Virus record (IMG/VR): IMGVR_UViG_3300028833_000126
Coordinates: 716 to 64,715 of that record
DNA: 64,000 bases
DNA from: a virus
Taxonomy: Duplodnaviria > Heunggongvirae > Uroviricota > Caudoviricetes
Strand: one strand, 5' to 3'
Position 1 is the stretch's first letter. Every line of letters starts with the position of its first letter. Of this stretch, positions 6,481-49,971 are shown one piece after another. A model generated the notes under the pieces. It was given only the letters and a program-made list of their open reading frames with translations, searched no databases and had not been told where the DNA came from. The translations under genes were made by a program, and so were the position numbers.

Positions 6481-6521
6481 ACACTTGCTCGATCTAAAAT
6501 ATCCATAGACAAAAAAAGAGA

Positions 6522-6539
6522 AGACGCTTATTCAGCGTC
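6522..6539 (-). terminator. hairpin terminator (GACGC-TTATTCA-GCGTC) plus T-tract
   Basis: Stem-loop followed on the minus strand by TTCTCTTTTTTTGTC; overlaps the 3' end of the 6528 gene. Confidence 0.5.
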
Positions 6540-6776
6540 CTCATCCTTTTCGGTTTCCGATTCGTCTTCTTCTTCCTCGGTAGTTTCTCCGTCGAAGATC
6601 TCATTCTCTTCCGTTGCTTCGTCAGCTTCCTTCGCCGCCTTGAGAGCTTTCCGCTTCTCGAGGACAGTGCCGGCGCCCATCCCAATGATGAACACCGCAG
6701 TGCCTGCGATCACTTTCGCTCCCGCTACGACGATATTCTTGCTTTCCTTCAGCACGTCGCTCATAAATTTCTTCAT
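6528..6776 (-). CDS. small membrane protein with acidic C-terminal tail
   Basis: 82-aa ORF, one TM helix then an E/D-rich tail; RBS AAAAGGAG; driven by the promoter motif at 6818-6848. Confidence 0.5.
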   Translation of the reverse strand: MKKFMSDVLKESKNIVVAGAKVIAGTAVFIIGMGAGTVLEKRKALKAAKEADEATEENEIFDGETTEEEEDESETEKDEDAE

Positions 6777-6817
6777 GGTTTAAAAACTCCTTTTTGAAAT
6801 ATAAATTTGGAATCGTG

Positions 6818-6848
6818 TTCCATTAAGACACATGAAAATTTCGCGACG
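6818..6848 (-). promoter_or_regulatory. conserved promoter-like element, copy 3
   Basis: TCGCGAAATTTTCATGTGTCTTAATGGAAC. Confidence 0.5.
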
Positions 6849-6959
6849 ACAAAATCGATCTCTAATTGCCTTGAACTACTCTCTCAGCCGTGCCAAAATA
6901 TCTTGCCGAAAACGGATCAGAGACGGATCAAAAATGCACTGAAAATCACCCCAAAAATC

Positions 6960-7270
6960 ATCGAAAAATGCCTCGTGACCAGTTGACCAGTTTTTTCGCT
7001 ATATATTTTATTTTTTAAAAATTTTCTTTTTTTATTGAAATGGGAAAAAAAAGTGGGCAACTGGTCAGGACCCCCCTGAAACCCTTGTCTTTATTGGGTT
7101 TGAGGGGTGACCACTTTTCTAAAAAAACTGGTCAGAAACTGGTCAATTGGCCAAAAATGACCACTTTTACAATTGTGTAACTCAAAAAATTCTGGCCAAA
7201 AGACCACTTTTACAAGTGTAGTTTTAAAACTTTTGGCCACGAAATTGGTCACTTTTTTACTCAAATTTTC
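6960..7270. repeat. iteron-like array: GACCACTTTTAC x4 and ACTGGTCA / TGACCAGT repeats next to an AT-rich tract
   Basis: gtgaccacttttct (7107), atgaccacttttac (7160), agaccacttttacaag (7207), tggtcactttttta (7248); gaccagttgaccag (6977), aactggtcag (7060), actggtcagaaactggtcaattggcc (7129); AT-rich run at 7000-7050. Confidence 0.5.
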
Positions 7271-7558
7271 ACTAAATTTTTTCGCCATGAAAAGTGCAAA
7301 ATATCACGCCCAAATCCTCAACTAATTTTCGAGATCTAACCTAGAATAGCGCCGCCATTTCCCCTGTTCAAAATATCAACCTGACCCGCGTCGCACACTT
7401 CGAAATTTTACTCTAACAACTTAGAGTATTGTATTTCTCGGAGCGAATGAGAGTCGAATTCTGAGCCTGTCCTGCGCCAGACACTCACCGCAGACCCAAG
7501 CAATGAATCAAAAAGAAAGAGCCAACGCTTAAGTCGCGTCGACCCAATCTCGTAAGTC

Positions 7559-7906
7559 TCACAACTCAACCACACCACTCTTAATGGCTTTTTTGATGTC
7601 ATATAAGAATGCTTCATATGCCCATATGCTTTTATACTGTGTTTCAAGATATGTCTCTTCTGATATAAACTCAAAGAACGGATACGGGATCCCAAGCATC
7701 TTGCGAATTCTGAAGCAAAGCAGACACCATCTGAACAGCCATTTAGCGTCTTTACGCTTAAACAGCGGCACAATATAGTTACTGTCTCCTCCAAAGTTTT
7801 CACAAAGCTGCTTGAACATCTGCGTACCTTTCCAGTCACAGAGAAGAATCTGTAACTCATTAATATAAATTGCCTGTTCATATGCCAGTTTGTCATTCCG
7901 TTTCAT
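7559..7906 (-). CDS. hypothetical protein
   Basis: 115-aa ORF with RBS AAAGGAGATTGAG; preferred over the overlapping 162-aa frame, which is Cys/Arg/Ser-rich. Confidence 0.5.
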   Translation of the reverse strand: MKRNDKLAYEQAIYINELQILLCDWKGTQMFKQLCENFGGDSNYIVPLFKRKDAKWLFRWCLLCFRIRKMLGIPYPFFEFISEETYLETQYKSIWAYEAFLYDIKKAIKSGVVEL

Positions 7907-7947
7907 AACTCAATCTCCTTTAAAATTGCAAATAATTGAATTGTTTT

Positions 7948-7977
7948 CTCCATATAATGCAATGAATTCTACGCGAC
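7948..7977 (-). promoter_or_regulatory. conserved promoter-like element, copy 4
   Basis: TGTCGCGTAGAATTCATTGCATTATATGGAG. Confidence 0.5.
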
Positions 7978-8022
7978 ATCTCGCCAATTCAAATATCAAT
8001 CCGCACAAAAAAAAAAAGAGAA

Positions 8023-8039
8023 GACGCTGTGTTAGCGTC
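8023..8039 (-). terminator. hairpin terminator (GACGCT-GTGTTA-GCGTC)
   Basis: Followed on the minus strand by a T11 run. Confidence 0.5.
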
Positions 8040-8334
8040 CCTCATTCTTTTCATTTAAATAGTTTACGAGTTCTCCCTTCATCGCTATTCTATAAATATC
8101 AATGCCATCAGATGCAAATCTGTTAACCCGACCACGCATTTCAAAGAGTTCATCTGTCAGCCCAATATACTCAGGCGAATAGCCAACCATAAATAATATC
8201 GTCTTCATGACGCAGTTAATAAAGTTGCGTGTCACTCTTACAATAAATACTGGTAAAGCTATTGCTAGAGATAATGTAGCCACAATGAGCCCAATTCCAA
8301 CGCGAATCAGTTTCTTGATTGCTTTCATTGTCAA
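8032..8334 (-). CDS. membrane protein
   Basis: 100 aa, N-terminal TM segment, RBS AAAAGGAGATTTG. Confidence 0.5.
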   Translation of the reverse strand: MTMKAIKKLIRVGIGLIVATLSLAIALPVFIVRVTRNFINCVMKTILFMVGYSPEYIGLTDELFEMRGRVNRFASDGIDIYRIAMKGELVNYLNEKNEGR

Positions 8335-8445: not shown

Positions 8446-8580
8446 ATCCCTTACCAGTATAACTCTACACCTAAAAACTGTACGATTGCAAATTAGGGGC
8501 CTTCTCGAAGCTCACAGAGGCCTTCTAGAGCCATACATCTGACAAATATCAATTCTTTATAAAAAAGAAAGAGGGCATGT

Positions 8581-8793
8581 TTAGCCCCCGATCTTCTTCT
8601 GATGTTCCTCATACTCTTCTCTCTCCTTTTCCACAGAACGCACGGTCGATTCCTTGAGCCCGAGAATGTCTGCAATCTCGATATAGCTGAAACCACGTTC
8701 TCTGAGCTTACGTACAGCTCTCCCGATCATGGTCTGCATCTTTCTCTTAACTGCTGCAATCTTGTTTCTCATTCCAATGATTTCGTTTGCCAT
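8581..8793 (-). CDS. small HTH DNA-binding protein (sigma-r4/LuxR-like)
   Basis: GFSYIEIADILGLKESTVRSV shares the HTH module seen in the RNAP N-terminus and in the 29758 and 30209 genes. Confidence 0.55.
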   Translation of the reverse strand: MANEIIGMRNKIAAVKRKMQTMIGRAVRKLRERGFSYIEIADILGLKESTVRSVEKEREEYEEHQKKIGG

Positions 8794-8863: not shown

Positions 8864-9090
8864 CCCAAAACAGTAAAAAGAAAGAGCAGACGCAGAATCC
8901 GCGCCCACTCTCTCAATTTTTTACTTCCCATACCTCTTTTCGTTCAGGTCGATAACCTTCTGGATCCGATCTTTCACTTCTTCGAGTTCTTCGCATCTTT
9001 CCCTTACGATCTCGTATTCCTTCTGAGAACCGATCATCATGCTCATGTCCATTCTTCCGACATACTCGCACTTGTCGAGCCGCTCTTCGC

Positions 9091-9324: not shown

Positions 9325-9327
9325 TTT

Positions 9328-10554: not shown

Positions 10555-10571
10555 GATGCTTATTCAGCATC
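10555..10571 (-). terminator. hairpin terminator (GATGC-TTATTCA-GCATC)
   Basis: Followed on the minus strand by CTCTTTCTTTTTATATTT. Confidence 0.5.
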
Positions 10572-10880
10572 GTCCTCAGTCTCCTCGGCCTCTTCGACCG
10601 TCTCTCTTTCTTGAATCTGTTTCAAAATCTTCTTGCAGTTTCTCTTCCATTTGATGTCTGCGATTACCCGCTTAGCATACGGAACGCCGATGAAAACCAC
10701 TGCCATATAGCCAGCAAAGATGTAAAGCCCTCTGTTATAGCTCCAAGCCCTAATATTTTGTGTATCCGCAAGATACTTGGCTGCCTCTTCACGAGAGCGT
10801 CCACCCTTGACGAGCATCTTCGTCAGTGTCTTCTCACCGAGTTTCCAATCGTTTAACTTTTCACCGATCTCATACAACAT
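10560..10880 (-). CDS. membrane protein
   Basis: Trimmed to MLYEIGEKL preceded by TATGGAGGTACATC; TM helix GLYIFAGYMAVVFIGV. Confidence 0.5.
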   Translation of the reverse strand: MLYEIGEKLNDWKLGEKTLTKMLVKGGRSREEAAKYLADTQNIRAWSYNRGLYIFAGYMAVVFIGVPYAKRVIADIKWKRNCKKILKQIQERETVEEAEETEDDAE

Positions 10881-10908
10881 AATGATGTACCTCCATAAAA
10901 ATGATTTT

Positions 10909-10946
10909 GGAAATGATTCCATTATACTGCATGTTATTTACGCGAC
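10909..10946 (-). promoter_or_regulatory. conserved promoter-like element, copy 7
   Basis: TTGTCGCGTAAATAACATGCAGTATAATGGAATCATTTCC. Confidence 0.5.
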
Positions 10947-10957: not shown

Positions 10958-11030
10958 TAGGGGCGAAGGGACTCGAACCCTCAACCAACTGCGTATAAGA
11001 CAGGTGCTCTAACCATTGCGCTACGCCCCG
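10958..11030 (-). tRNA. tRNA with anticodon UAU (reads AUA, Ile-type), phage-encoded
   Basis: Minus-strand cloverleaf: acceptor GGGGCG/CGCCCC, D-arm GCGC-AATGGTTA-GAGC, anticodon stem CCTGT/GCAGT with loop CTTATAC (TAT at plus 10995-10997), T-arm GAGGG-TTCGAGT-CCCTT. A few mismatches, no encoded CCA. Confidence 0.55.
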
Positions 11031-19596: not shown

Positions 19597-19616
19597 GAGG
19601 CTATGTTTCAAGCCTC
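19597..19616 (-). terminator. hairpin terminator (GAGGCT-ATGTTTCA-AGCCTC)
   Basis: Followed on the minus strand by TTTCTCTTTTTGATATTTTC. Confidence 0.5.
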
Positions 19617-19663: not shown

Positions 19664-19771
19664 TTATTCAGCGCTCTTTTTCCCGTTAGGATAGACTTCG
19701 CCGTAGCCCCTCTCTGCAAATTCTCCGACAATATCATCAGGAATGTCCGCATTCAGACCGAGCTCATCCAT
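19664..19771 (-). CDS. possible 35-aa acidic peptide
   Basis: MDELGLNADIPDDIVGEFAERGYGEVYPNGKKSAE in an otherwise ORF-free 190-nt gap; weak RBS. Confidence 0.25.
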   Translation of the reverse strand: MDELGLNADIPDDIVGEFAERGYGEVYPNGKKSAE

Positions 19772-22459: not shown

Positions 22460-22699
22460 TCACAGTTTGTCTAGCTCAGAAATATCAATATGTCCGATCT
22501 TTTTATATCTCTGACTAAGCTCGCTTTTCGTAAAAGTAATTTGAGTTGTACTGTAAGTCCACCATGCTGATCCTTCAGACCATCCGGTATTATACAAGCA
22601 GAGTGCATCAGTCGCTTCTTCATTATCATTGTAAATCTGAACAATTAGCACGGTATAGGGATTGCAGGGAATGTCCCAAATATCACCGACTTCAGGCAT
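22460..22699 (-). CDS. hypothetical protein
   Basis: 79-aa ORF. Confidence 0.4.
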   Translation of the reverse strand: MPEVGDIWDIPCNPYTVLIVQIYNDNEEATDALCLYNTGWSEGSAWWTYSTTQITFTKSELSQRYKKIGHIDISELDKL

Positions 22700-23459
22700 C
22701 TTTTTCTTCCCCCGTAATAATCCAGCTCTCCGGCAAACTCTCGATCCAGTCGCAGAAGGTGTGCCACTCGTCCAACTTGTGAGCCTTTCTTGCCGGATAG
22801 ATGTTTGCCAACACTTCGTAGTTCAGCATGACCGTCCGCTTCTGGTTGTAGGAGCTCGGGAGGAGCTGGATCATCTGCCACCAGTAACGCTTGTCTTTGG
22901 TTTCCAAATATAATTTGCGATACTTATTCAGCATCTTGATGAGCTCCCACATAAGCATCTTGGGACAAATTCCCAGATCTTTTTCTGCAAACGGGAGATC
23001 GGTGAAGCAAGCGTGCTCGTCATCCTGCTGATCAAATAAGTGATCAAAGGAGAAGTCCTCCATATCGAATCCCTTCGCCTGAATCTTATGCATTGTCGAA
23101 CAGGAGTTGGCAACGGTCCCGACTTTGTATGTATCATACTCCTTCCACCAATAGAGTGGAGCAATCAGGTCGGCATACACTACGATCATCCTCCGGTACT
23201 TCGCATGATCTTTCCCGGCAGAAGCAAGACGCTTCATCAGGTCTTTGTCGGCTGCTCCAATGAGTGTTGGACGCGGATAATCGTCATAATGATCAGAGGT
23301 ATTTTCGTCCGAGTAGCTTTCCTTACAAATATCATGATAACCGACATCATCCTCGAATCTACTGTCCGAATTCTGCCAGGAATTCATGGGATTTCTCATT
23401 CCCCTGATAGCGTCCTCGAATCCAAAGACCCTTGTGTTTTCAATTACCAGCATTGTCAT
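22692..23459 (-). CDS. hypothetical protein
   Basis: 255 aa, Trp/Tyr-rich, no motif recognised. Confidence 0.5.
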   Translation of the reverse strand: MTMLVIENTRVFGFEDAIRGMRNPMNSWQNSDSRFEDDVGYHDICKESYSDENTSDHYDDYPRPTLIGAADKDLMKRLASAGKDHAKYRRMIVVYADLIAPLYWWKEYDTYKVGTVANSCSTMHKIQAKGFDMEDFSFDHLFDQQDDEHACFTDLPFAEKDLGICPKMLMWELIKMLNKYRKLYLETKDKRYWWQMIQLLPSSYNQKRTVMLNYEVLANIYPARKAHKLDEWHTFCDWIESLPESWIITGEEKDA

Positions 23460-24507: not shown

Positions 24508-24942
24508 TTATTTCTCCTTTTTATCCACTTGCAGCGGAATATCTGCATAAAGTCTCAGACTCTGATAGCTTTGTCTTCTCAGTTCTTTAACACTTTCTCT
24601 TAGATTGACTCGTACCGTTGCGTCGATCGGTTCGCCATTCTCGATCTTATCAAGAAGCGAATCAGTTAAGTCGCAAAATATAATGCTTTGCTCAAGATCA
24701 TCACTCAGGCAGTCAATTACGTTTTCGTTAAATTTTTTTCGATCATCAATGTGAGCATTATACTTAGTTGTAAGCTCATTATACTTATCAATCAGCTTAT
24801 TATAGTCGTCTCCAAGCTCAGAATATCTTTTCTCAAGAGCTCTTCTATAGATAATTAAGCAAATACTACCTATGGCACATGCCGCATTACAAGCAAGCAT
24901 TAAGATAGCTTCTTTTTTACTAAATATAATTCTCTCTTTCAT
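24508..24942 (-). CDS. membrane-anchored coiled-coil protein
   Basis: N-terminal TM then a helical region. Confidence 0.45.
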   Translation of the reverse strand: MKERIIFSKKEAILMLACNAACAIGSICLIIYRRALEKRYSELGDDYNKLIDKYNELTTKYNAHIDDRKKFNENVIDCLSDDLEQSIIFCDLTDSLLDKIENGEPIDATVRVNLRESVKELRRQSYQSLRLYADIPLQVDKKEK

Positions 24943-25349: not shown

Positions 25350-25374
25350 TTATTTATCCTTTCTTTTTTTTTTT

Positions 25375-25707: not shown

Positions 25708-25758
25708 TCTTATTTACTCTCCTTTCAAAAATATCAAAAGAAAGAGAAGAGACCCTGT

Positions 25759-25989
25759 TCAGGCCTCAACCCTTTCTTTGATTTCACTCTTGATCCTGTT
25801 GTATGCTTCAATGAGTTTCTCAGCACACAGAACCATGATCTCACCGAGGATCGTAGTAGTTGCGCAGAAGATGATGAGCGCTCTGTAGATAATCGTTAAT
25901 ACTCCTTTGATTACCCAGAGCACACCATTTCCTGCGTTCTTAAACTCGTCCCACAGTGCCTCAATGTCCTCTTTAATGATATCCTTCAT
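25759..25989 (-). CDS. small membrane protein
   Basis: 76 aa with a TM helix; driven by the promoter motif at 26021-26050. Confidence 0.45.
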   Translation of the reverse strand: MKDIIKEDIEALWDEFKNAGNGVLWVIKGVLTIIYRALIIFCATTTILGEIMVLCAEKLIEAYNRIKSEIKERVEA

Positions 25990-28068: not shown

Positions 28069-28088
28069 GAGACCATGTTTCAGGTCTC
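28069..28088 (-). terminator. hairpin terminator (GAGACC-ATGTTTCA-GGTCTC), identical to the one at 44946
   Basis: Perfect 6-bp stem followed by a T-rich tract on the minus strand. Confidence 0.5.
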
Positions 28089-33193: not shown

Positions 33194-33238
33194 TGTTTAC
33201 ACTCCTTTTGAAAATATAAAAGAAGAAAAGAGGCCCTG

Positions 33239-33505
33239 TTAGGACCCCTTCTCCTCTTCGGTTTCTTCCTGATTCTTTTTCTTTTTCGCCTTAATGATCG
33301 CTGTTGCAATTACACCCGTTGCAACTCCGACAAGGACTGCCGCACCTCCGATGAGCATACACCAGCAACCGTATCCATTGATGTCGTTATAGAAGTCAAT
33401 TGCGTCTTCTACATTTTTTCCATACATGGACCAGTCGTCATATGTGCCATCTGGAAATGTCACAATGTTCTTGTCTTTGTTTAAGGTGATAAACAAGCTT
33501 TTCAT
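33239..33505 (-). CDS. small membrane protein
   Basis: 88 aa with a TM helix; driven by the promoter motif at 33540-33568. Confidence 0.45.
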   Translation of the reverse strand: MKSLFITLNKDKNIVTFPDGTYDDWSMYGKNVEDAIDFYNDINGYGCWCMLIGGAAVLVGVATGVIATAIIKAKKKKNQEETEEEKGS

Positions 33506-37100: not shown

Positions 37101-38343
37101 TGGCACGTTCCTTGACTTCCTTGAAGTAACTCTTGAGCTCCTCTTTAAATAAGCGATACGACAGTGGATACGGTACATTCGCATCCTTGTTGTACGTCTG
37201 GTACTTTTCCCAAGCACCTTTGAGAGTCGTTCCATCGTCACGCTCGAAAGTCGAGTAATAGTACTCAACGAAATTGTAGAAATCGTTCGAGGCACCCATC
37301 ATTCTCATCGGTATGTAGTTATCATATCGATTCGGGTCCTCAAGGTAAACGTCGAGACAATGTTTTGCAATTGCTCCAAGCTCGAACTTGACCTGCGATT
37401 TGAGATGGTCATACTCTTTTCGCGGAATCTTATCGCCTGTTGGGATCACATCAATGAGACGTCGGATAATACCTGACTTTGCATCTGTGATTCGCACAGG
37501 TTTGTTCGTACCCATGAACATGAAGCTGTTGAAGCGAGTGGAGTACTGTGTCTTATGCTTCTCGTTCACCAGCATCTCATCGTGGGAGGCTATTGAGTTC
37601 AATCGTGTATTGTCTTCAATATGGCTCAAGTCTCCGTCCTGTTGGATTGCAACAAGCGGATTTGAACGGAATGCTTCAAGGGCAAATGCTGCGTTGGAAT
37701 TACCGAGTGACTTAGCATCGAAAACACAATAATGCCCGACAAAGAGAAGTTGAATAATGTCAAGAATGGTCGATTTACCTGTACCCGGATCTCCATAGAA
37801 CACCATGAACTTTTGAATGTTCTTGGAGTCCCCTGCGACCACAGCACCAATTGCCCATTCTATCTTCTGTCTTTCTTCCGGAGAATATAAAACAGTCATA
37901 AATCTCTCCCATGCCGGGTACTCTCCTGCCTCAAGCGGATACGGCAAGCGTTTTGATGCATAGTCCTTTTTATTTACTTCATCATTTTGAAAGACCAATT
38001 TCTCATCGAGTGGATGGAATGAGTCACGCATCTGCTTCTGACAGTACTTGTGCCATCTATCAGCGGTTCCAGTCGAGGCATAGCGCATATACATGACGTG
38101 AGCAATATCGCCACTTGCAGACTTGTTGTACTCCTCTGCATAGTCATGAAGCTCTCTGTCTACAAGGTCAATTAAGTCCTGCTCACTTGTAGACCAGAGC
38201 CCCCTCTCCTCAATCCATACAGCATAGAAATCGCCGCCTTTGATCATCAAGTCTTCGCTTGGGTTACAAATGATGAATTCTGGGTAGATCTCTACATGAC
38301 CACGCTTAGTTGAACGGGTAAACACCCGGAAGAAGTCCGCCAT
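34135..38343 (-). CDS. replication fusion protein: SF3 (D5/P4-like) helicase, AEP-type primase and family-B DNA polymerase with 3'-5' exonuclease
   Basis: Walker A FYGDPGTGKST (aa 183-192); AEP motifs IVIDFDIPDE and SGQGIHLHYIY (about aa 515-560); exonuclease motifs FFDVEV, FNCRQYDNHILY and YCANDVIATE; polymerase motifs GDISSQHPHS, KIVINAIYG and HIKTDS. Confidence 0.75.
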   Translation of the reverse strand: MADFFRVFTRSTKRGHVEIYPEFIICNPSEDLMIKGGDFYAVWIEERGLWSTSEQDLIDLVDRELHDYAEEYNKSASGDIAHVMYMRYASTGTADRWHKYCQKQMRDSFHPLDEKLVFQNDEVNKKDYASKRLPYPLEAGEYPAWERFMTVLYSPEERQKIEWAIGAVVAGDSKNIQKFMVFYGDPGTGKSTILDIIQLLFVGHYCVFDAKSLGNSNAAFALEAFRSNPLVAIQQDGDLSHIEDNTRLNSIASHDEMLVNEKHKTQYSTRFNSFMFMGTNKPVRITDAKSGIIRRLIDVIPTGDKIPRKEYDHLKSQVKFELGAIAKHCLDVYLEDPNRYDNYIPMRMMGASNDFYNFVEYYYSTFERDDGTTLKGAWEKYQTYNKDANVPYPLSYRLFKEELKSYFKEVKERANADDGGRVRKWYGGFRKEKFALEEFSEKSSKKSDGEKKPECWFKPRDQASLFDILATDYPAQYASEEGIPQRKWSNVQTKLKDLDTSQLHYVRVPVNHIVIDFDIPDENGNKSLEKNLEAVSRWPPTYGELSKSGQGIHLHYIYKGDPTKLSRIFDDRIEIKVFTGNMTLRRKLTKCNDLQIAEISSGLPLKGEDKLVNTETVKNEKAIRTLIKRNLCKEYHPGTKPSVDFIKKVLDDAYASGVHYDVSDMFQSVLTFASNSTHNADYCTKLVAEMKFKSEDSEPPGDEYQIKKDILIFFDVEVFINLFVVCYKALGDDQPVVRMINPTPQEIEELTQYKLIGFNCRQYDNHILYARILGYTNEQLYHLSKTIIDSEKGAKIGGKFGNAYNLSYTDIYDFSSKKQSLKKFEIELGIHHQELGLPWDEPVPEELWDKVAEYCANDVIATEAVWNARQEDFMARQIQVELVKALHGISTVTVNDTTNSLSEKIIFGSDKDPQTQFNYRDLSKPVSWTQYSEYREKFGDKYVFHVFDENGLPTYEVYDGDGCVALPDGYSILPFFPGYKFEYGKSTYLGEEIGEGGRVYAEPGIHLGVWDGDISSQHPHSAIAEVLFGPKYTRIFEEVVESRVAIKHKDFDLAVTYLNGVLKPWLTDDNAPGLAQALKIVINAIYGLTSAKFTNRFRDPRNVDNIVAKRGALFMTLLKSEVQKRGYQVAHIKTDSIKIPNATDEIRNFVIKFGHEYGYSFETEADFDKFCLVNDAVYVAKYKEPLKDKKTGDDIWWTATGTQFQVPYVFKTLFSGEELKFDDYCETKSVAKGSIVIDMNEKLPQLSAVEVKELEDLQKMLEPDAKVSKEKILKRYELTDDMVEVRLTELREKESKSHNYIFVGRIGQFCPIVPGGEGGVLYRNADNKYYAVAGTKGYRWLESEIVKELNKQDMIDVSYYDALANEAIETINSVGIACGYGDYYKLVDKEPPADWPPETPKF

Positions 38344-39817: not shown

Positions 39818-40786
39818 TCACACCTTCTTGTACGGAATTTTACTGTAGACGATTTCAGAGCAGTTGAAGTCAAGCCACACCGCATTGTTCTCACCGAAGA
39901 CAAAGTCACGAACAGACTTCTGGCTAAGATCACCGACACCGAAATCGACATAATTCTTGTTATCGTCATTCGGATCATAGACCCAACCGAACTGTTCCCC
40001 CGCCTGTGTCTTTTCGAAGCCAAGCGCCTCGTAAACCTCATTAAGTCTGAGAACACGATTTGCAACAAGTCTGTCCGTCATCTCAGCCATCTTGCGGTTG
40101 AGGAACATAGCATTGTACATAGCGTCTTTCTGCCAGTACTTGCTGTCTTCATTGAAGCACCGTGCGAAGTCACTGAGCTGATAGTTCTCCTTCGGCTTCT
40201 TGGTCGTCACAGTCTCCTCCTTGCCATTCTCGTCGGTCTTCGTCTCCTCGACTTCTTCCATCTTGTCGGCAAAGCGCAGTTCCTTGTCAACCTCCTCGCC
40301 ATACTTCTCGACAACTTTCTTGCGATAGTCATCGAACTCCTTGACAAGGACGCCGTTTGCAGCGAGGAGACCTGCGTTACGATTGGACAGGATTCTGTGA
40401 GAGGTGAGGACACAGGCAATAGAGAACGCACCCATCAGGACAACAGGAGCATAGAGCTTTGCAACTTCTCCCGCGCCTTTCAGATAACCGATTGTGACGT
40501 CATGCTTCATGTCTTCTTCGGTGTACCGAGACTCCGGAAGGATTTCGAACCCCTTCTCTTCTGCTTCTACAATATGCGCTCTCTTGCCCTTGGCTTCCGC
40601 AATGATTCGCTTCGGTTCTTCAAGGGCCTTCTCCGTCTTCTTTCCGGCACGCCATGCGAATACTACGGTCGTGATACCAGATGCGATAGCGAGTGCAACG
40701 AAGATCTCAGGCGAGTGCTTCTGTGCACCAAGTTTGGCGTTCGTTGCAATGTTCTTCATGCCAGTTGTGATTTTTTCGAATTTCAT
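39818..40786 (-). CDS. membrane-anchored protein, member 1 of a three-gene paralog family
   Basis: TM after a short N-terminus, long helical region, conserved C-terminus LNEVYEALGFEKTQAGEQFGWVYD shared with the 41427 and 43244 genes. Confidence 0.5.
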   Translation of the reverse strand: MKFEKITTGMKNIATNAKLGAQKHSPEIFVALAIASGITTVVFAWRAGKKTEKALEEPKRIIAEAKGKRAHIVEAEEKGFEILPESRYTEEDMKHDVTIGYLKGAGEVAKLYAPVVLMGAFSIACVLTSHRILSNRNAGLLAANGVLVKEFDDYRKKVVEKYGEEVDKELRFADKMEEVEETKTDENGKEETVTTKKPKENYQLSDFARCFNEDSKYWQKDAMYNAMFLNRKMAEMTDRLVANRVLRLNEVYEALGFEKTQAGEQFGWVYDPNDDNKNYVDFGVGDLSQKSVRDFVFGENNAVWLDFNCSEIVYSKIPYKKV

Positions 40787-41426: not shown

Positions 41427-42239
41427 TTAGATTTCAACATAACCGAACACACCTGGATCGATAAGCTTTGCGTTCGGTCTGATTGTATAGACGGGCTTGC
41501 CATCCATGATTGTCGTGGAAACATCAAAGCTTGCCTGATCGGAAGATTTGAAGCAGTCGTCAAATCTCCACCCGTATGCCTCTCCGATTCCAGTTAAACC
41601 ATGGCCAATGATCTCATATGCTTCATTCAGAGTCACTTCGTCACCAGCATTGAGTCTGCGATTGATCTCATTGACCGCTGCATCGAGAGTATTCTTAGTT
41701 ACCAGGAATGGCTTGCCTTCAAGTCCATCGAACGTCAGATCATAGCACCAGTATTTCCCTTCTTCAGGGACGAACTCTGGAATCACGTCCGGCTTCGGAG
41801 TTTCTTTCAGCTTCTTCTCGACAACCTTATCATCGATCTCCTTGGCCTTCTCTTCGCCTACAACATCCTTTGCTGCATCGACATAGTCGGCAATGTTCTT
41901 GGATGCCATCTCGGAAATTGCACATGCAGCCGTACCGAGCTTTGCAATACGTTTATCGTTTTCGACGGCAGATGCAACGAGGAAGAGAGTTCCGCCGATC
42001 AGAGCGCTTGCAGGAGCCGTAAAATGCTTCGCTGCGATCTTGCCCTTCTCAACACCATCGATCTCTTCTCCGGTCTCCGCCTTCTTATCTTCGAGTTCTT
42101 TCTTGAATTTCGGAATTTCCGTACCGAGCAAATATCCACCCGTCACGAGAAGGATCCCTCCAAATGCCGTAGCAATCTTGGGCCAATGCTTGTTGAGAGT
42201 CTTGCCGACATTTTTGATAATTTCTTTTGCTGTGCTCAT
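41427..42239 (-). CDS. membrane-anchored protein, member 2 of the paralog family
   Basis: C-terminus LNEAYEIIGHGLTGIGEAYGWRFDD aligns with members 1 and 3. Confidence 0.5.
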   Translation of the reverse strand: MSTAKEIIKNVGKTLNKHWPKIATAFGGILLVTGGYLLGTEIPKFKKELEDKKAETGEEIDGVEKGKIAAKHFTAPASALIGGTLFLVASAVENDKRIAKLGTAACAISEMASKNIADYVDAAKDVVGEEKAKEIDDKVVEKKLKETPKPDVIPEFVPEEGKYWCYDLTFDGLEGKPFLVTKNTLDAAVNEINRRLNAGDEVTLNEAYEIIGHGLTGIGEAYGWRFDDCFKSSDQASFDVSTTIMDGKPVYTIRPNAKLIDPGVFGYVEI

Positions 42240-42470: not shown

Positions 42471-42508
42471 TAGCCGCCTCCAATAAGCGCAAAAAGAAGA
42501 AGAGCCTG

Positions 42509-42730
42509 TTAAAGCTCCTCGTCTTCTTCAGATTCGGTGTCTTCTTCAGACTCTTCTTCGTCTTCGGTTCTTTCTGCCATGAGCGCATTTACACGCTCCT
42601 CGATCCTTTCATCGATATACTCTTCCTGCTCTCTCTTATCGAGTGCGTCCTTAATCAGGTTCCCGATAATCAGAGCGAATCCAAGTGCTACCGATCCGAT
42701 CTCAATGATTGCGTTCTTTTTCTTTCTCAT
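42509..42730 (-). CDS. small membrane protein with acidic tail
   Basis: 73 aa, TM then an E/D-rich tail. Confidence 0.4.
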   Translation of the reverse strand: MRKKKNAIIEIGSVALGFALIIGNLIKDALDKREQEEYIDERIEERVNALMAERTEDEEESEEDTESEEDEEL

Positions 42731-43243: not shown

Positions 43244-44026
43244 TTAAATTTCACACATCTCAAAACCATAGCGTGCTCTGCAAATTGGCTGGACGACATA
43301 TGATCCGTCACCAGAGCATGTGTAAGCGAAATCAAGCCAAGAACTTGCATAGCGACCGTCAACATCATTGTATATGGACTCATAACTCCAGCCAATGTCT
43401 TGTGCTTTAAGCCGATCAATACCGTAGTCAGAAGGTTCGATGTCGAAATATCCAATGACATCCCAAAGCGTTACGCTACCAATCAGATCAAGATGACGAT
43501 TAATGCGCACGACAGCGTTTGCGATATCGAATCTTGTAGCCATGAAGCTGATGTCTGGGCAATCTTCATAAAGATCCTTCAAGACCGCATTAACTCTTTT
43601 TTCTCCTGTTTCGATATCTGTATATTCAACTCCTTCATCCGGCAGCTTTTCCTCTTCAATCGCTTCTCTGACAGAAACATCAGCCTCTTCGCCATTGATC
43701 TCACCATTCTTAAGCCGATAGTTCTTATATGCCTGCTGAACCGCGACATATGCGCCTGTCAGACTTGCCTGCGTATTGAGATCCATGCAGTGTGCACCAA
43801 CCCCACAAGCCACAGACACAGCAGCACAGCCGATTGCCGGACAAAACACCTTTGCGCCAGTCACGACCTTGTCCTTCTTCGACATCTCAGGGTTTGCATC
43901 GAGAGCCTCTTTGAACTTCGGACCCTCCTTAGCCGCAAATATCACGGCTGCGATTGTTGCTCCGGAGCCGAGAACGGTAAGGACCGTCGGCAGGATTTTC
44001 CGGATCATGTTGCTTGCTTTGCTCAT
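43244..44026 (-). CDS. membrane-anchored protein, member 3 of the paralog family
   Basis: Trimmed to MSKASNMIRKI preceded by GAAAGGAGAAATCACA; C-terminus LWDVIGYFDIEPSDYGIDRLKAQDIGWSYE. Confidence 0.5.
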   Translation of the reverse strand: MSKASNMIRKILPTVLTVLGSGATIAAVIFAAKEGPKFKEALDANPEMSKKDKVVTGAKVFCPAIGCAAVSVACGVGAHCMDLNTQASLTGAYVAVQQAYKNYRLKNGEINGEEADVSVREAIEEEKLPDEGVEYTDIETGEKRVNAVLKDLYEDCPDISFMATRFDIANAVVRINRHLDLIGSVTLWDVIGYFDIEPSDYGIDRLKAQDIGWSYESIYNDVDGRYASSWLDFAYTCSGDGSYVVQPICRARYGFEMCEI

Positions 44027-44074
44027 TGTGATTTCTCCTTTCATAATTATAGTTGAATGAGCTTAAAAACTTTG

Positions 44075-44525: not shown

Positions 44526-44552
44526 AAAAATATAAAAAGAGAAAAGCGTCTG

Positions 44553-44867
44553 TTAAGACGCCCTCTCGACTTCATCCGTCATTTTTCTCATTTTTGCATT
44601 GAATGTTCCCAAACTAATATTCAGTCCTGCCCAGAATGTATGCCAAAACCACACAATCTTCTTTTCACCACAGAATTGATAAGATTTATTGTCGCGATAG
44701 TCTGCATCCATGATCTTAAGAAATTCGTTGAACTCATCGAGTTCTACTTTCTTAATCTCATCTCTGAGCCATCCGTCAAGATACTTCTCATATTCTTTGG
44801 CTTCAATCATTTTGTTTGTGCATTTCTTAGCCATTCTGTAAGCCGTCTTATCGGTCAGTTTCATTTT
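44553..44867 (-). CDS. hypothetical protein
   Basis: Trimmed to MKLTDKTAY preceded by TAAGGAGCAATAAA; the longer ORF would read through the promoter/terminator cassette. Confidence 0.45.
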   Translation of the reverse strand, partial: KMKLTDKTAYRMAKKCTNKMIEAKEYEKYLDGWLRDEIKKVELDEFNEFLKIMDADYRDNKSYQFCGEKKIVWFWHTFWAGLNISLGTFNAKMRKMTDEVERAS

Positions 44868-44926: not shown

Positions 44927-44945
44927 AAAAAATATAAAAAGAGAA

Positions 44946-44965
44946 GAGACCATGTTTCAGGTCTC
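44946..44965 (-). terminator. hairpin terminator (GAGACC-ATGTTTCA-GGTCTC)
   Basis: Immediately followed (minus strand) by TTCTCTTTTTATATTTTTTGTCGCG, running into the promoter motif. Confidence 0.5.
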
Positions 44966-45748: not shown

Positions 45749-45828
45749 TTTGAACTTCTCCTTACCAAGGTAAAAAGAAAAAGAGGAGAACTCACGATGA
45801 GTCTCCTCCTTCTCTTGATCAATTGCTG

Positions 45829-46077
45829 TTATTCCTTTTCAATGTCTTCTTTCTTGCTTGACTCTTCGTCATTCATTGCCGGAAGGATAGGATATAATGC
45901 ATCATATTCTTCCTCGTCATCTATGCCGTAGAGTTCGAGTTCAATCTCGTAACCGCATTTTGGGCACAGAAGTCTATCCTCCAACTTGTCGGCGAACTTC
46001 ATTGTTGCACCGCACTTCGCGCAGATAAACTTGCCTGTCTCAAAAGCAAGCCACCTCTTTTCATTGAAAATGCTCAT
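45829..46077 (-). CDS. zinc-ribbon protein
   Basis: CAKCGATM...CPKCGYEIE. Confidence 0.45.
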   Translation of the reverse strand: MSIFNEKRWLAFETGKFICAKCGATMKFADKLEDRLLCPKCGYEIELELYGIDDEEEYDALYPILPAMNDEESSKKEDIEKE

Positions 46078-46154: not shown

Positions 46155-46171
46155 AAAAGAAAGAGGGGCCG

Positions 46172-46432
46172 TTAAGCTCCCTCAATCGGTTTCTTCCTAT
46201 GCTTCGTTCCCCAGAGAATTCCGATCACTCCAATCACTGTAGTTGCAATACTTGCATACAGGATTCCGTTATTCCTTCCCTGTACGTATGCGTAACCAAG
46301 GAGATCGTCAACTCTGCTGACAAACTTTTCTTTATCGCCAACACTGTTGAGCTTCCCAACTTCGATTACACGATCGACCATAATCTTCACGGTCCCGTCG
46401 CTGTATTCCTCTACGGTAATACCTTTTTCCAT
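46172..46432 (-). CDS. hypothetical protein
   Basis: 86 aa; leader TTTATGGAGGTTCATCATG nearly identical to the leader at 10880. Confidence 0.45.
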   Translation of the reverse strand: MEKGITVEEYSDGTVKIMVDRVIEVGKLNSVGDKEKFVSRVDDLLGYAYVQGRNNGILYASIATTVIGVIGILWGTKHRKKPIEGA

Positions 46433-46496: not shown

Positions 46497-46547
46497 AAAA
46501 AGAAAGAGGAAACGCTTGCTAGGCGTAACCCCTTTCTGTGAAATCTC

Positions 46548-46982
46548 TTACTTTTTCCGACCAATGGATCCGATAAGAGATCTTCCGACAGAAGAGCCGA
46601 TCGTGCCAGTCTCTTCGAACTTCAGCACATCTCTCAGCCATCCGCTCGTCCATCTGTTATTCATCAGCGTGACAACAACCGTAGCTGCAACGCCGACACC
46701 CTGAACGATGCACTGAATGATCTGAATGCGTTTCTCAGTCTTGTTCCTCTCGTCCCTGTACACATTTTCGCTTGTCAGCTTATTCTGCTCCAGTTCCTTA
46801 TCGGACTCGACTTTTTCCGCTTCGATTCTCAGTTTGTCCCTCTCGAGTGCGACCTTATGCAACTGCACAAAGTCATCGATAATGTTCTTCGATGTCTCGC
46901 TTCCTGCTGAGGTGGCCGCAAGCTGTTCAAGCTGCTTCTCCATCTCTTCATTCAGAAGTTTCTCAATCTTAGTTGTATCCAT
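46548..46982 (-). CDS. coiled-coil protein with C-terminal TM
   Basis: 144 aa, RBS GAAAGGAGATTAACT. Confidence 0.45.
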   Translation of the reverse strand: MDTTKIEKLLNEEMEKQLEQLAATSAGSETSKNIIDDFVQLHKVALERDKLRIEAEKVESDKELEQNKLTSENVYRDERNKTEKRIQIIQCIVQGVGVAATVVVTLMNNRWTSGWLRDVLKFEETGTIGSSVGRSLIGSIGRKK

Positions 46983-47371: not shown

Positions 47372-47386
47372 AAAAAAAAAAGAAAA

Positions 47387-47403
47387 GACGCTTATTCAGC
47401 GTC
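47387..47403 (-). terminator. hairpin terminator (GACGC-TTATTCA-GCGTC)
   Basis: Followed by TTTTCTTTTTTTTTTCGCGTAGAA, leading directly into a promoter. Confidence 0.5.
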
Positions 47404-47607
47404 CGTTCTCTTGGTCTTCTTCCAATTAGGGAATTTTGTCTTCATGATTTGCTCGTGATAAAATCTCACTGGGCATCGGTCACAGTCAAGCCGAACATTC
47501 CTCATGCAACAAATTGCGCATGACTTCTCAAACATCTTAATTGCCTGAGGAGCGTTCGTTGCCATGTCCTGATACTCCATAGATTTCGCTACAAAGTTTG
47601 AATACAT
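47392..47607 (-). CDS. small Cys-containing protein
   Basis: Trimmed to MYSNFVAKSM preceded by AAAAGGAGATTTGAAATT; CAICCM...CDRCP. Confidence 0.4.
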   Translation of the reverse strand: MYSNFVAKSMEYQDMATNAPQAIKMFEKSCAICCMRNVRLDCDRCPVRFYHEQIMKTKFPNWKKTKRTDAE

Positions 47608-47627
47608 AATTTCAAATCTCCTTTTCT

Positions 47628-47663
47628 GGATTGTCTCCATTAAGAGAGATGAAATTATCGCGA
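47628..47663 (-). promoter_or_regulatory. conserved promoter-like element, copy 18
   Basis: AATCGCGATAATTTCATCTCTCTTAATGGAGACAATCC. Confidence 0.5.
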
Positions 47664-47689
47664 TTAGAATATCCATTAGCTTATCGGGG

Positions 47690-47945
47690 TTCTCTTATCA
47701 ATTTTAGTAAATTTTTAGTAAAATGCTTGTTTCTTTGGATTAAAATATCTGTAAAACGGCTTTATCATTGGTTTTCTAATATTTTTCTTATGATTTCTGA
47801 CGGAAATCCTACACTGCATAAACTCAGTACCAATAAATACGCCAAACCTCAACAATCTCAACACTAAACGCATTCCAATATCTTCTCGTAATCTATCATA
47901 TCTTCTCGCAATTTACTAAAATTTTTAGTACAAATTTTAGTACGA
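47690..47945. other. candidate attP region: arm-type direct repeats flanking an approximately 200-bp core region, adjacent to int
   Basis: TTTTAGTAAA x2 (47703-47724), ATATCTTCTCG(T/C)AAT x2 (47878-47913), TTTTAGTAC x2 (47925-47945); non-coding. Confidence 0.4.
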
Positions 47946-49213
47946 TCAGATAACCTTTCCCTCCAAATTTCTGAATGACCTGATCTTTGCCTCATTCGTT
48001 GCCTCAGCGTAAATATTCAAAGTTATCGAAATATCAGAATGACCCATCACTTCTTGAATCACCTTTACGTTACTTTCGTTCTCGCACATTCTGGTACAGA
48101 ACGTATGCCTGAGATCATGAGCGCTCAAAAGCGGAAGAAGAACCGGATCCCGATGTTCTCTTTGAGCTCGTTCTATCTCTTCATCGTTGCACTTTTCTGC
48201 AAGCATCTTTAAAGCAACAGTTACGCTCCCTTCGTCGAGACATTTGCCAGTCCTTCTCACAAATATAAAACCGCTGCAATCATCGACTGTTTCGCTCCTT
48301 ATTCTCATGCGATCCTGTAAATACTTCTCTTCAAGCAGTACTTCCATAACAGATTGAAACATCGGAATCGTTCTTATACCACTTGATGACTTTGGAGCAG
48401 CGATGTGCTCTCTGTACTTATCCTCGCCACTTGCTCTATAATATACGAGCTGCCGATTGATATAGATGAGCCTATTTGTAAAGTCGCAGTCGTCCCATGT
48501 GAGCGCTCGTGCTTCCCCGATTCTGCAACCAGTACCAAGCAAGAAAACGATCAGACGATACCATTTGCGATACTTCTGATGCTCTCTTAAGTATTCCAAA
48601 AATATCTTTTGCTGTTCTTCGGTTAAAGCTTTATCCTCAGCTCTTTCGATACTTTTTCGATTCTTAAACACTGTGGACATGACCCCATCAACTGGATTTG
48701 ATCGTATGAGATTGTCTCTCACGGCAATATTAAAAAGAGGATGCAAAATTAGATTCACATTTCTAATCGTTCCTTGCGACAGTTTGTCTTTGTCGACCAT
48801 TTTGGTGTACAGTTTTAAAATATCACTGTAGTGAATCGAGCCGACACTTCTTTTTCCGAGAGTATTTTCAACGTACCAAGACCAGATCTTTCTGTAATGC
48901 ACTCTTGTCTGCTCTCGAAGATCCGTTTTTGTCTTCATATACTCGTCAAAGTATTGATTCAAAGTAACCTTATCCGCGTCGTAAATGTTAATCTCATCCA
49001 CATCTGCTCGCAATGCTTTCATTTCCATATCCCTGAGACAAATATCACAGGACTTGCCTTCTGGAACTGAGTCAGTTGCCACGAGTTTCCAGCTATAAAG
49101 CCATCGATCAATTCCGTTATGGTCCTTATACTTATAGGCATACCTCCCATCAGATCTTTGATACTCGCCTTTTCTCAGTTTTCTGTTCTTTGAATCTCTT
49201 CTGTCTGCCATTT
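47946..49213 (-). CDS. int: tyrosine site-specific integrase
   Basis: Catalytic signature TGCRIGEARAL (box I Arg), LLSAHDLRHTFCTRM (H-x-x-R), VMGHSDISITLNIYAE (Tyr); trimmed to MADRRDSKN preceded by AAAAGGAG. Confidence 0.85.
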
Positions 49214-49297
49214 TGAACTCCTTTTTAGTAAACAGAAAAGAGACCCTGATAAGCATAATCATTATACTATATCAGAGTCTCCCCTGTCAACGATTTA

Positions 49298-49504
49298 CTA
49301 TAAATTATATACTCGATCAAGCCATTTCTCAAACAGTACTCGCTTGATCCTGACTTGCGATCCAACTCTCAGAACCCACTCAAGTGTCCGGTCTTCCTCA
49401 ATGATCTTGCGCAGTCTTCCTTCTCCAATCAGGGAATATCCAGCAGCCTCTTCAATGGTCATCGAGTACCGTTGCTCTGGGCTCAGTTGTGATTTCTTTG
49501 GCAT
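49298..49504 (-). CDS. xis: excisionase/AlpA-like HTH protein
   Basis: MTIEEAAGYSLIGEGRLRKII resembles the phage excisionase MerR-type HTH; immediately upstream of int. Confidence 0.5.
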   Translation of the reverse strand: MPKKSQLSPEQRYSMTIEEAAGYSLIGEGRLRKIIEEDRTLEWVLRVGSQVRIKRVLFEKWLDRVYNL

Positions 49505-49561
49505 GTGATCTCTCCTTTCTGATGCCTCATTGTTATGTGCAAAAAAAAAGAAGAGGCCATG

Positions 49562-49807
49562 TTAGACCTCATCTTTACTTGAAGCAAATCTTTCATCATT
49601 ACTTTTAATTGGCTTATTAAACCAGTCATATCCATAAACGCTTCCAAGTTGCAAATATGCCGGAGGATCGATCTGCAATTCATCATAAACTATTAACAGC
49701 GCATCTCTTTCTGTAAGATAGCCGTCATTTGCTAAGATTTCTTCGCATCTTTCCTTCGCTCTCCTCATTGCTCCCTCTAGCTTCATTTCATACTCTTCGG
49801 TTGTCAT
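49562..49807 (-). CDS. hypothetical protein
   Basis: 81 aa, RBS TAGGAGGTTAGT. Confidence 0.45.
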   Translation of the reverse strand: MTTEEYEMKLEGAMRRAKERCEEILANDGYLTERDALLIVYDELQIDPPAYLQLGSVYGYDWFNKPIKSNDERFASSKDEV

Positions 49808-49837
49808 ACTAACCTCCTAAATAGATTTTATATATGC

Positions 49838-49865
49838 TTCATTATACAACAAGTTTTCTACGCGA
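49838..49865 (-). promoter_or_regulatory. conserved promoter-like element, copy 19
   Basis: TCGCGTAGAAAACTTGTTGTATAATGAAGC. Confidence 0.5.
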
Positions 49866-49883
49866 AAAATAAAAAGAGAATGA

Positions 49884-49906
49884 TAGCCCAGCGATTTGCC
49901 GGGCTA
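49884..49906 (-). terminator. hairpin terminator (TAGCCCGGC-AAATC-GCTGGGCTA)
   Basis: Followed by TCATTCTCTTTTTATTTTTCGCGTAGAA. Confidence 0.5.
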
Positions 49907-49971
49907 CCACTCTCAAATATCATATCTCAACTGTCATCTTTTTATCTATCTTTTCAGATAAAATTATAACA

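Follow-up and report, generated by a model that had tools for sequence, protein, structure and literature searches.

Introduction

In Firmicutes, as described by Johnson et al. (2020; summarised in PMC7858274), the polymerase outruns the ribosome (runaway transcription) and terminators lie only a few nucleotides (nt) past stop codons; a purine-rich coding strand is expected for such hosts (PMC13323073). A second described system comes from T4-type phages: their PeSLs (promoter-early stem-loops) combine terminator and promoter in cassettes on either side of ORFans and are scarce in the structural module, with crossovers mapped inside the loop and a stem-loop consensus particular to each sub-lineage (PMC2839356; PMC4122927). 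Here, a family of hairpins was analysed in a stretch of 64,000 nt (IMG/VR record IMGVR_UViG_3300028833_000126, positions 716 to 64,715; the whole stretch is referred to as the window), which comes from a Clostridia phage of gut or rumen, a relative of Faecalibacterium phage FP_oengus. The hairpins are probably intrinsic terminators or attenuators of the early/middle region, fused to the ends of small genes and forming a lineage-specific cassette that is copied and exchanged. They are a variant of a known device, not a new mechanism.

Hairpin anatomy and the loop family

Gene ends were screened by an ORF-anchored scan, in which the end of each open reading frame (ORF) was folded with RNAfold and a U-rich tail was required; 17 of 107 minus-strand ORFs end in a terminator-like hairpin. 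Family members were detected by regular-expression and RNAfold scans; a MAFFT alignment threw the 3' arms of unequal-length loops out of register. All hairpin sequences quoted in the original prediction were located: GAGACCATGTTTCAGGTCTC is present at 28069 and 44946 (0.01 expected), GACGCTTATTCAGCGTC at 6523 and 47387 and GATGCTTATTCAGCATC at 10555 (0 expected), and the others lie at 19597-19616, 8021-8041, 44542-44565, 49553-49570 and 25749-25767. Members beyond that list were found at 8571-8589, 33219-33259, 42499-42520 and 46163-46183. While the sequences are real, their original reading on the plus strand was wrong, the genes and T-tracts being on the minus strand. A T-tract follows the hairpins on the 3' side on the minus strand only, and the elements are therefore read on this (coding) strand, which also carries all long ORFs of the window; the plus strand has uniformly negative GC and AT skews. 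The family members are as follows (5' arm, loop, 3' arm).

6520..6542, minus strand: hairpin GAGGACGC-TGAATAA-GCGTCTTC, then TCTTTTTTT; loop stop TAA at 6530-6528, ending an ORF of 82 amino acids (6528-6776) with the protein end ..DEDAE*

8021..8041, minus strand: hairpin GGGACGC-TAACACA-GCGTCTT, then a T-tract; loop stop TAA at 8034-8032, ORF 8032-8334

8571..8589, minus strand: hairpin GGGGGC-TAAACAT-GCCCTC, then TTTCTTTTTT; loop stop TAA at 8583-8581, helix-turn-helix (HTH) ORF of 70 amino acids (8581-8793)

10555..10571, minus strand: hairpin GATGC-TGAATAA-GCATC, lengthened by GAGG/CCUC pairing; loop stop TAA at 10562-10560, ORF 10560-10922, protein end ..EDDAE*

19597..19616, minus strand: hairpin GAGGCT-TGAAACAT-AGCCTC, then TTTCTCTTTTT; nearest ORF stop 48 nt upstream

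25749..25767, minus strand: hairpin GAGGCC-TGAACAG-GGTCTC, then TTCTCTTTCTTTT; loop stop TGA at 25761-25759, ORF of 76 amino acids (25759-25989)

28069..28088, minus strand: hairpin GAGACC-TGAAACAT-GGTCTC, then TTCCTTTTTATATTTT; loop stop TGA at 28082-28080, ORF of 75 amino acids (28080-28307)

33219..33259, minus strand: putative terminator with a 19-bp stem, purine-rich coding GAAGAGGAGAAGGGGTCC paired to GGCCTCTTTTCTTCTTT; stop TAA at 33241-33239 at the apex, ORF 33239-33505

42499..42520, minus strand: hairpin GAGGAGCT-TTAACA-GGCTCTTC, then TTCTTTTT; loop stop TAA at 42511-42509, ORF of 73 amino acids (42509-42730), protein end ..EEDEEL*

44542..44565, minus strand: hairpin GAGGGCGTC-TTAACA-GACGCTTTT, then CTCTTTTTATATTTT; loop stop TAA at 44555-44553, followed by a putative CGCG-box promoter

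44946..44965, minus strand: the 28069 hairpin repeated exactly (97% identity over 37 nt when the T-tract is counted), followed by a putative CGCG-box promoter

46163..46183, minus strand: imperfect member GAGGG-a-GC-TTAACG-GC-CCCTC, then TTTCTTTTT; loop stop TAA at 46174-46172, ORF of 86 amino acids (46172-46432), followed by a CGCG box

47386..47404, minus strand: hairpin GGACGC-TGAATAA-GCGTCT, then TTTCTTTTTTTTT; 32-nt copy (~97%) of the 6520 cassette; loop stop TAA at 47394-47392, ORF 47392-47676, protein end ..RTDAE*

49553..49570, minus strand: hairpin GAGGTC-TAACAT-GGCCTC, then TTCTTTTTTTTT; loop stop TAA at 49564-49562, ORF of 81 amino acids (49562-49807)

On the minus strand, a G+C-rich stem with the apical loop U-R-A-(A)-(A)-C-A-K leads into a U-rich tract, UUCUCUUUUU(AUAUUUU); T-tails of the TTCTCTTTTT type frequently run on into TATATTTT. 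The loops of the 14 members, 6 to 8 nt long, read TGAAACAT (three times), TGAATAA (three times), TTAACA (twice), TGAACAG, TAACAT, TAACAG, TAAACAT, TAACACA and TTAACG. Upstream purine-rich coding sequence often pairs with the start of the pyrimidine tract, which lengthens the stem. Twelve hairpins were folded; their energies lay between -12.6 and -27.7 kcal/mol, and their z-scores against shuffled controls between -2.6 and -5.0. The family is confined to about 6.5-50 kb; no member lies in 50-64 kb, where the late structural operon contains a single, unrelated hairpin. With stem and T-tract on the coding strand at ORF 3' ends, the hairpins look like terminators, as originally proposed. Processing by RNase III, which had also been suggested, would call for about 20 bp of near-continuous double-stranded RNA and fits them poorly, since 11/14 members have stems of 6-10 bp (5-19 bp overall, with at least three G-C pairs) and only 33219-33259 reaches 19. 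At the gathering threshold, Rfam 15 returned no family for the hairpins, its sole match in the window being a tRNA at 10958-11030.

The T-tract very often enters TTTTTATATTT(T/G), for instance at 28053-28068, 44929-44945 and 33207-33218. The same extension was seen in the relatives L004, L014, L016, L019, L036 and L041 as well as in FP_oengus, lineage-wide and whatever the loop type; it may be a piece of the U-tract or a -10-like element.

As the coding strand is purine-rich (A 0.30, G 0.25) and the loops are short, their similarity might be put down to chance, that is, to A-rich loops in A+T-biased intergenic sequence. The composition of the strand would predict AACA in the apex of 0.39 of the 17 gene-end hairpins, however, and it occurs in 10. 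Once exact duplicates are dropped and stop codons kept in place, AACA is seen in 9/15 where 0.66 would be expected (maximum 5 in 20,000 trials); against loops with their own letters shuffled, the expectation is 1.7, and the observed value was reached in 0/20,000 trials. Scanning for stem, AACA or GAATAA apex and T-tail together gave ten hits, all on the minus and none on the plus strand, compared with 0.06 in Markov resamples, and a scrambled-loop control described below yielded nothing terminator-like. Chance is refuted by these numbers, and the originally proposed family with a conserved loop held up against shuffled and resampled controls.

Stop codons inside the loops

In 12 of the 17 gene-end hairpins of the ORF-anchored scan, the stop codon of the upstream gene lies inside the loop (hairpins 6542, 8041, 8589, 10571, 25767, 28088, 33259, 42520, 44565, 46183, 47404 and 49570). 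In a separate examination, the loop TAA or TGA was the in-frame stop of a sizeable upstream ORF for 11/13 family hairpins. The 5' arm then comprises the last two or three codons (GAG-ACC, GAG-GCC, GAG-GTC, GAC-GCT-GAA and similar), and T-R-A of the loop is conserved because the upstream stop codon (TAA or TGA) sits there. Most stop-in-loop ORFs have strong Shine-Dalgarno sequences, and no PHROG family was found for nine of the ten hairpin-flanked ORFs searched. Three unrelated proteins have the common tail D-A-E* because the hairpin GAYGCTGAATAAGCRTC is common to their genes.

The ORF upstream of hairpin 44965 stops 12 nt before the hairpin, in frame with the loop TGA. In L002, ORF 28080-28307 has an orthologue with a newly acquired, earlier stop, likewise in frame. 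The TGAAACAT hairpins of relatives lie 9-31 nt past the stop of the upstream co-oriented ORF, and their loop TGA is a real stop in only about 6/31 cases. For TAACAT hairpins across the lineage, the loop TAA is a real stop in nine of 11 distinct loci, giving ..E-S* or ..E-L*. Scored by the same method, stops lay in the loop in 11/76 of all relatives' terminators versus 10/13 in the window.

Small unrelated proteins were observed to have Glu/Asp-rich tails and to end in Glu-X-stop (..DEDAE*, ..EDDAE*, ..EEEKGS*, ..EEDEEL*, ..EES*). Such acidic C-termini occur in the ORFs ending at 6528, 10560, 33239, 42509, 47392 and others, and also in L091-L111. They are probably dictated by the terminator and not by protein function, because it is the purine-rich 5' arm, paired with the U/C tract, that codes for these residues. 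The arrangement offers a clean, checkable case of gene-end-fused terminators, in which unrelated small proteins would gain terminator-encoded tails (..DAE*, ..ET*, ..ES*).

CGCG boxes downstream of the hairpins

A promoter/operator-like box (T)nCGCG[A/T]A[G/A]AA-N(about 9-12)-TATAAT-like-G(A/G)GA is present in 11 co-oriented minus-strand copies between 5905 and 49869. Its fuller reading is (T)nCGCG[A/T]A[G/A]AA(W)(W)YCAT, with a TATAAT-like hexamer about 18-22 nt on. The core CGCGWARAA occurs 16 times in the window (2.1 expected).

CGCG-box starts, minus strand: 49864, 47371, 46495, 46153, 44924, 44523, 26048, 8862, 7975, 6478, 5941

Nine of the 11 boxes come after a terminator hairpin, seven of them right at the end of the T-tract and two (7975 and 6478) some 30-35 nt on, which would make terminator-promoter cassettes; about half of the hairpins run directly into the Shine-Dalgarno sequence of the next gene. 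The same box follows hairpins in FP_oengus, L001, L023, L037, L091 and the gut phage MT835495. It could be an early promoter with a regulator site or a promoter of the phage RNA polymerase. A role of the loop as a -35 element (CTGAAA/TTAACA) for a TATATT -10 past the T-tract was considered and rejected, the spacing ranging from about 15 to 21 nt among copies, with two cases at 17/18 nt.

Hairpins with non-family loops, several of which are also followed by a box, are the following.

7519..7545, minus strand: terminator-like hairpin, loop GACTTAA; part of the promoter, gene and terminator module 7467-7990

8880..8914, minus strand: putative terminator with a 16-bp stem, loop ATT; CGCG box after it

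45779..45812, minus strand: hairpin resembling a terminator, loop outside the family; ORF 45829-46077 lies upstream

46501..46537, minus strand: terminator-like hairpin, loop CTAGCAA, downstream of ORF 46548-46982; CGCG box after it

49876..49914, minus strand: putative terminator, non-family loop AAATC on a 17-bp stem; a putative CGCG-box promoter with a perfect TATAAT comes next

The region 5852-6520, located between the terminator 6520-6542 and an endonuclease-exonuclease-RNA polymerase block, is about 650 nt long and lacks a convincing ORF. It holds the boxes 6478 and 5941 and may be a non-coding transcript or a regulatory region.

Probable copying and recombination of cassettes

The pairs 28069/44946 and 6520/47386 are near-identical copies of 32-37 nt that include the T-tract and have unrelated flanks. 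In the relatives L016 and L042, the copies within one genome have an identical stem, and the stems differ between the genomes. A half cassette of the TGAATAA type (AGCGCTGAATAAG, about 19664-19676, minus strand) lacks the 3' arm, lies 48 nt upstream of hairpin 19616 and ends an ORF of 39 amino acids (..KKSAE*); it looks like the scar of a recombination event within the terminator loop.

Two contigs from IMG/VR metagenome 3300032030 allowed close comparison: L003 is 96.7% identical over window 1.6-8.9 kb, and L002 is 94.7% identical over 23.5-31 kb. Relative to L003, the window has an extra module (7467-7990) made up of a promoter box, the gene 7559-7906 and hairpin 7545, with junctions just past the T-tracts of two hairpins. 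Relative to L002, the gene 25375-25707 (window 25363-25710) is inserted between two repeated ribosome-binding stretches, right after hairpin 25767. Whole-gene presence or absence among these relatives (95-97% identical) was noted at 7467-7990, 25363-25710 and 24519-24927. Two of these indels have their junctions in repeated regulatory sequence, either terminator T-tracts or the ribosome-binding stretch GAAAGGAnnTAAATAA.

The duplicates, the half cassette and the cassette-bounded indels point to copying and recombination of terminator(-promoter) cassettes. Propagation by duplication, as originally envisaged, agrees with the 32-37-nt copies, the identical stems within relatives, the half cassette and the gene-sized indels bounded by cassettes. 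Much of this would also be expected if the hairpins acted mainly as DNA linkers for the recombinational shuffling of small ORFans, in the manner of PeSLs, with termination secondary or incidental. The cassettes flank ORFans without a PHROG family, module junctions fall at their T-tracts, duplicates occur within the genome, one cassette is broken in the loop, and T4-type PeSLs have both crossovers mapped within the loop and a stem-loop consensus per sub-lineage (PMC2839356; PMC4122927). A pure recombination signal would, on the other hand, need neither strict co-orientation with genes nor a U-tract nor embedded stops. Moreover, one of the four indels against close relatives, a small sample, has no cassette nearby, and another lies between repeated ribosome-binding regions, not hairpins. 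A primary linker role is thus regarded as possible but somewhat unlikely.

Conservation of the loop across the phage lineage

Searches of IMG/VR with GAGNNCTGAAACATGNNCTC returned 41 matches, 36 of them with complementary NN/NN (chance expectation about 14%) and with widely different stems. At 24 of the 37 newly found GAGNNCTGAAACATGNNCTC loci, homologues of DNA polymerase, helicase, RNA polymerase and others are encoded at 45-65% identity (tblastn with the window proteins). With GAGNNCTAACATGNNCTCTT, 21/25 matches were paired and 19/24 loci belonged to the lineage, whereas a control in which the loop was scrambled at constant composition (TACAAGAT) had 19 matches, of which one was paired and none terminator-like. 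Hairpins with TGAAACAT or TAACAT loops and covarying stems are carried by about 40 metagenomic phage contigs. In 17 distinct TGAAACAT hairpins, seven of the nine stem pairs changed on both sides, one pair being seen as GC, AU, CG and UA; these hairpins were picked by their loop, and only the stem result of the alignment is informative. Among 185,579 species genomes, the pattern was found 25 times and paired 11 times. Four hits came from Clostridia (a Clostridium sp. metagenome-assembled genome, Lachnospiraceae UBA4711 and two uncultured Clostridia), and all their contigs encode phage proteins of the lineage. Because matches concentrate on contigs with lineage proteins, the loop motif is taken to mark one phage lineage and not a general terminator style of the host. 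In metagenomes, cassette and CGCG box may help in practice to recognise the lineage and to annotate gene ends.

An IMG/VR group with GATGAGGGC-TGAAACAT-GCCCTCATC (L006, L009 and others) was excluded: the phage is unrelated, and its T-tract lies on the opposite strand. Aquiluna/Micrococcales genomes (L049, L059, L062) contain a conserved chromosomal hairpin gaaagaGAGCTC-TGAAACAT-G(G/A)GCTCtctttc with the same loop, unrelated to the lineage; it is probably an unrelated structured element.

Not all relatives use the loop. FP_oengus has nine copies of its own homogeneous hairpin, GGAGCTTACGA-GAAA-TCGTAGGCTCT, without a TGAAACAT-type loop, and keeps the outer stem GAGCT..GGCTC. GAAA and TGAAACAT types stand side by side in L022 and L030. 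Lactococcus phage P078 has the same polymerase family and lacks this loop. MT835495 (RNA polymerase 47%) has few terminators in the parts examined and is uninformative.

These distributions bear on the idea that a lineage-encoded or host factor recognises the sequence of the apical loop (C-UGAAACAU-G, C-UAACAU-G) and that termination or read-through is thereby regulated during infection, candidates being an antiterminator or terminator-enhancing RNA-binding protein or the phage RNA polymerase, an enzyme resembling RNA-dependent RNA polymerases (RdRP). Such a factor could account for a loop that is invariant on covarying stem pairs at many independent loci and at about 50% protein identity, that is kept even where TGA is not the stop codon, for which the scrambled control was empty, and which is limited to one phage lineage and absent from host chromosomes. 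Nor is the loop thermodynamically special, whereas relatives use GNRA loops. Yet FP_oengus, equally close (DNA polymerase 52%, helicase 59%, RNA polymerase 46%), does without the loop and uses GAAA, and P078 lacks it as well. Loop lengths of 6-8 nt in one genome, and GAAA together with TGAAACAT in L022 and L030, would be unusual for a protein-binding site. Pfam and PHROG searches revealed no RNA-binding candidate among the conserved lineage proteins, all of them of unknown function, and the window holds no complement of the loop elsewhere; an antisense or kissing target was rejected on the same ground. A recognition element is accordingly judged improbable. Equally doubtful, in our estimate, is its elaborated form, in which a factor of the Oengusvirus-like sub-lineage recognises the loop and the hairpins are switches that time early-to-later transcription, possibly coupled to translation termination in the loop.

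The specific recognition schemes offered originally fared worse. A T7 T-phi-like terminator does not match the phage polymerase, an RdRP-like two-barrel phrog_4291 enzyme and not a T7-type one, and recognition of the loop by this polymerase is contradicted by FP_oengus and P078, which share the polymerase family without the loop. A nut-like antitermination target would not be placed at gene ends before a U-tract. Three hairpins, those with TGAATAA, are topped by C-U-GAAUA-A-G, a U-A-closed GAANA pentaloop resembling that of lambda boxB (GAAAA/GAAGA). A lambda-type nut site was nevertheless rejected, as there are only three GAAUA pentaloops, all at gene ends with U-tract and embedded stop and not promoter-proximal. 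No boxA was found (no systematic search for one was made), and no N-like protein was identified. MazF-type sites read UACAU; this candidate was dismissed too, the loops reading AACAU, with TACAT only in L023.

Proposed mode of action

According to the favoured reading, intrinsic (factor-independent) terminators or attenuators would punctuate the early/middle genes on the minus strand (about 6.5-50 kb). The putative terminator forms part of the upstream gene's own 3' end: its last two codons (GAG-NNC, GAC-GCU and similar) supply the 5' arm, and UAA or UGA lies in the loop, which fixes U-R-A. We infer from this layout that host RNA polymerase terminates, fully or partly, at the hairpins. In a Firmicutes-type host, the polymerase would run ahead of the ribosome, and a stop codon in the loop would be tolerable for that reason: the ribosome at the stop would not melt the hairpin at the moment of termination. 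The cassette of about 35 nt (GAG..C, loop, G..CUC, U-tract) forms a module of the lineage, which would have been copied within genomes and exchanged among related phages, often together with the putative lineage-specific promoter box just downstream. Because of this copying and exchange, all copies would descend from one template and be homogenised towards it, and such concerted evolution may be the cause of loop identity.

Several points weigh against this proposal, whose functional part is read from anatomy. Hairpins 10571, 19616, 25767, 28088, 33219 and 42520 have the next Shine-Dalgarno sequence within 25-55 nt and no recognisable promoter; with the next gene adjoining in this way, they could be complete terminators only if the downstream genes use read-through. 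Stems of 6 bp with loops of 6-8 nt are modest terminators. Copying alone poorly explains an exact 8-nt TGAAACAT while two or three central stem pairs vary, and this loop is exact across phages with about 50% protein identity although its TGA is a real stop in about 6/31 cases. Because varying stems carry the exact loop even at sites where it does not serve as the stop, some direct selection on its sequence is likely. An 8-nt loop kept exactly over such deep divergence is a concrete lead on transcription control in these phages.

The phage and its relatives

Genes in the window were identified by PHROG searches, and those below all lie on the minus strand.

34135-38343, minus strand: primase-DNA polymerase fusion

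28340-29542, minus strand: helicase

47946-49262, minus strand: integrase

52899-54197, minus strand: amidase endolysin

54-64 kb, minus strand: tail genes

2132-5008, minus strand: RNA polymerase, member of phrog_4291 (annotated "RNA-dependent RNA polymerase")

From these genes, the synteny and proteins shared with FP_oengus and the near-identical contigs, the window can be assigned to an uncultured, temperate, Oengusvirus-like siphovirus, of whose genome it makes up the greater part. FP_oengus (NC_047916) has the same gene order and shares further proteins besides the DNA polymerase, helicase and RNA polymerase. For 7 kb of the window, megablast gave no match among GenBank phages. The phrog_4291 member, the only phage RNA polymerase in the window, is an RdRP-like two-barrel enzyme with HTH domains; related proteins at 45-47% identity occur in FP_oengus, in a human-gut phage contig and in many actinophages. 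A protein of this type has been described as an RdRP/YonO-like putative RNA polymerase with HTH domains (bioRxiv 10.1101/842583). Assignment of the window to SPbeta with YonO was rejected, the best polymerase relatives being those of FP_oengus and actinophages; in species genomes, no relative of the RNA polymerase was confirmed.

The 70-amino-acid protein at 8584-8793 (minus strand) aligns to positions 67-125 of phrog_4291 (E = 3.8e-6), in the N-terminal HTH region of this RNA polymerase family, and constitutes a free-standing copy of the polymerase DNA-binding domain. Three phrog_2152 paralogues are encoded on the minus strand (39818-40786, 41427-42239 and 43244-44044); FP_oengus also has three copies, annotated DUF6353. 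The tRNA at 10958-11030 (minus strand) is a tRNA-Ile with anticodon TAT according to ARAGORN and Rfam, just upstream of ORF 10560-10922. A phrog_6721 protein of 255 amino acids and unknown function (22692-23459, minus strand) has 55% homologues in the TGAAACAT/TAACAT-loop relatives L001, L014, L016, L023, L042, L061, L092, L097 and L101; no homologue was found in the first 50 kb of the 58.4-kb FP_oengus genome, and this correlation with loop type comes from partial contigs only.

Comparison with known systems

The window hairpins share with the intrinsic terminators of Firmicutes a G+C-rich hairpin followed by a U-tract on the coding strand at gene ends, a purine-rich coding strand and a distance between stop and hairpin so short that the terminating ribosome would cover the hairpin. 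The stop-in-loop arrangement fits the Firmicutes pattern because the polymerase there outruns the ribosome. They differ in that the stop usually lies within the loop, with the last two codons forming the 5' arm, and, unlike ordinary terminators, they have a lineage-specific loop and cassette sequence in common.

The terminators of FP_oengus resemble those of the window in genome plan, outer stem (GAGCT...GGCTC), T-tract, CGCGAAAAA boxes and repetition after small early genes. Their apex, in contrast, is an extra stem with the GNRA tetraloop GAAA, and the stops are mostly upstream of the hairpin. This GAAA terminator family has apparently not been described previously.

Like PeSLs, the window elements are repeated, putatively composite cassettes among small ORFans that are rare in the structural operon, have a sub-lineage consensus and bound gene-sized indels. 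The phage is a Clostridia siphovirus, however, whereas PeSLs belong to T4-like myoviruses; the stem-loop stands upstream of the putative promoter, not between or over -35 and -10; the box CGCG[A/T]AGAA departs from a plain sigma-70 consensus; the upstream stop falls within the loop; and no promoter follows about half of the hairpins. Judged by their layout, the window cassettes are best classed as an analogue of PeSLs and not as a member. The idea of terminator-promoter cassettes as shuffling units may thereby be widened from T4-type phages to gut and rumen Clostridia phages with an RdRP-like RNA polymerase.

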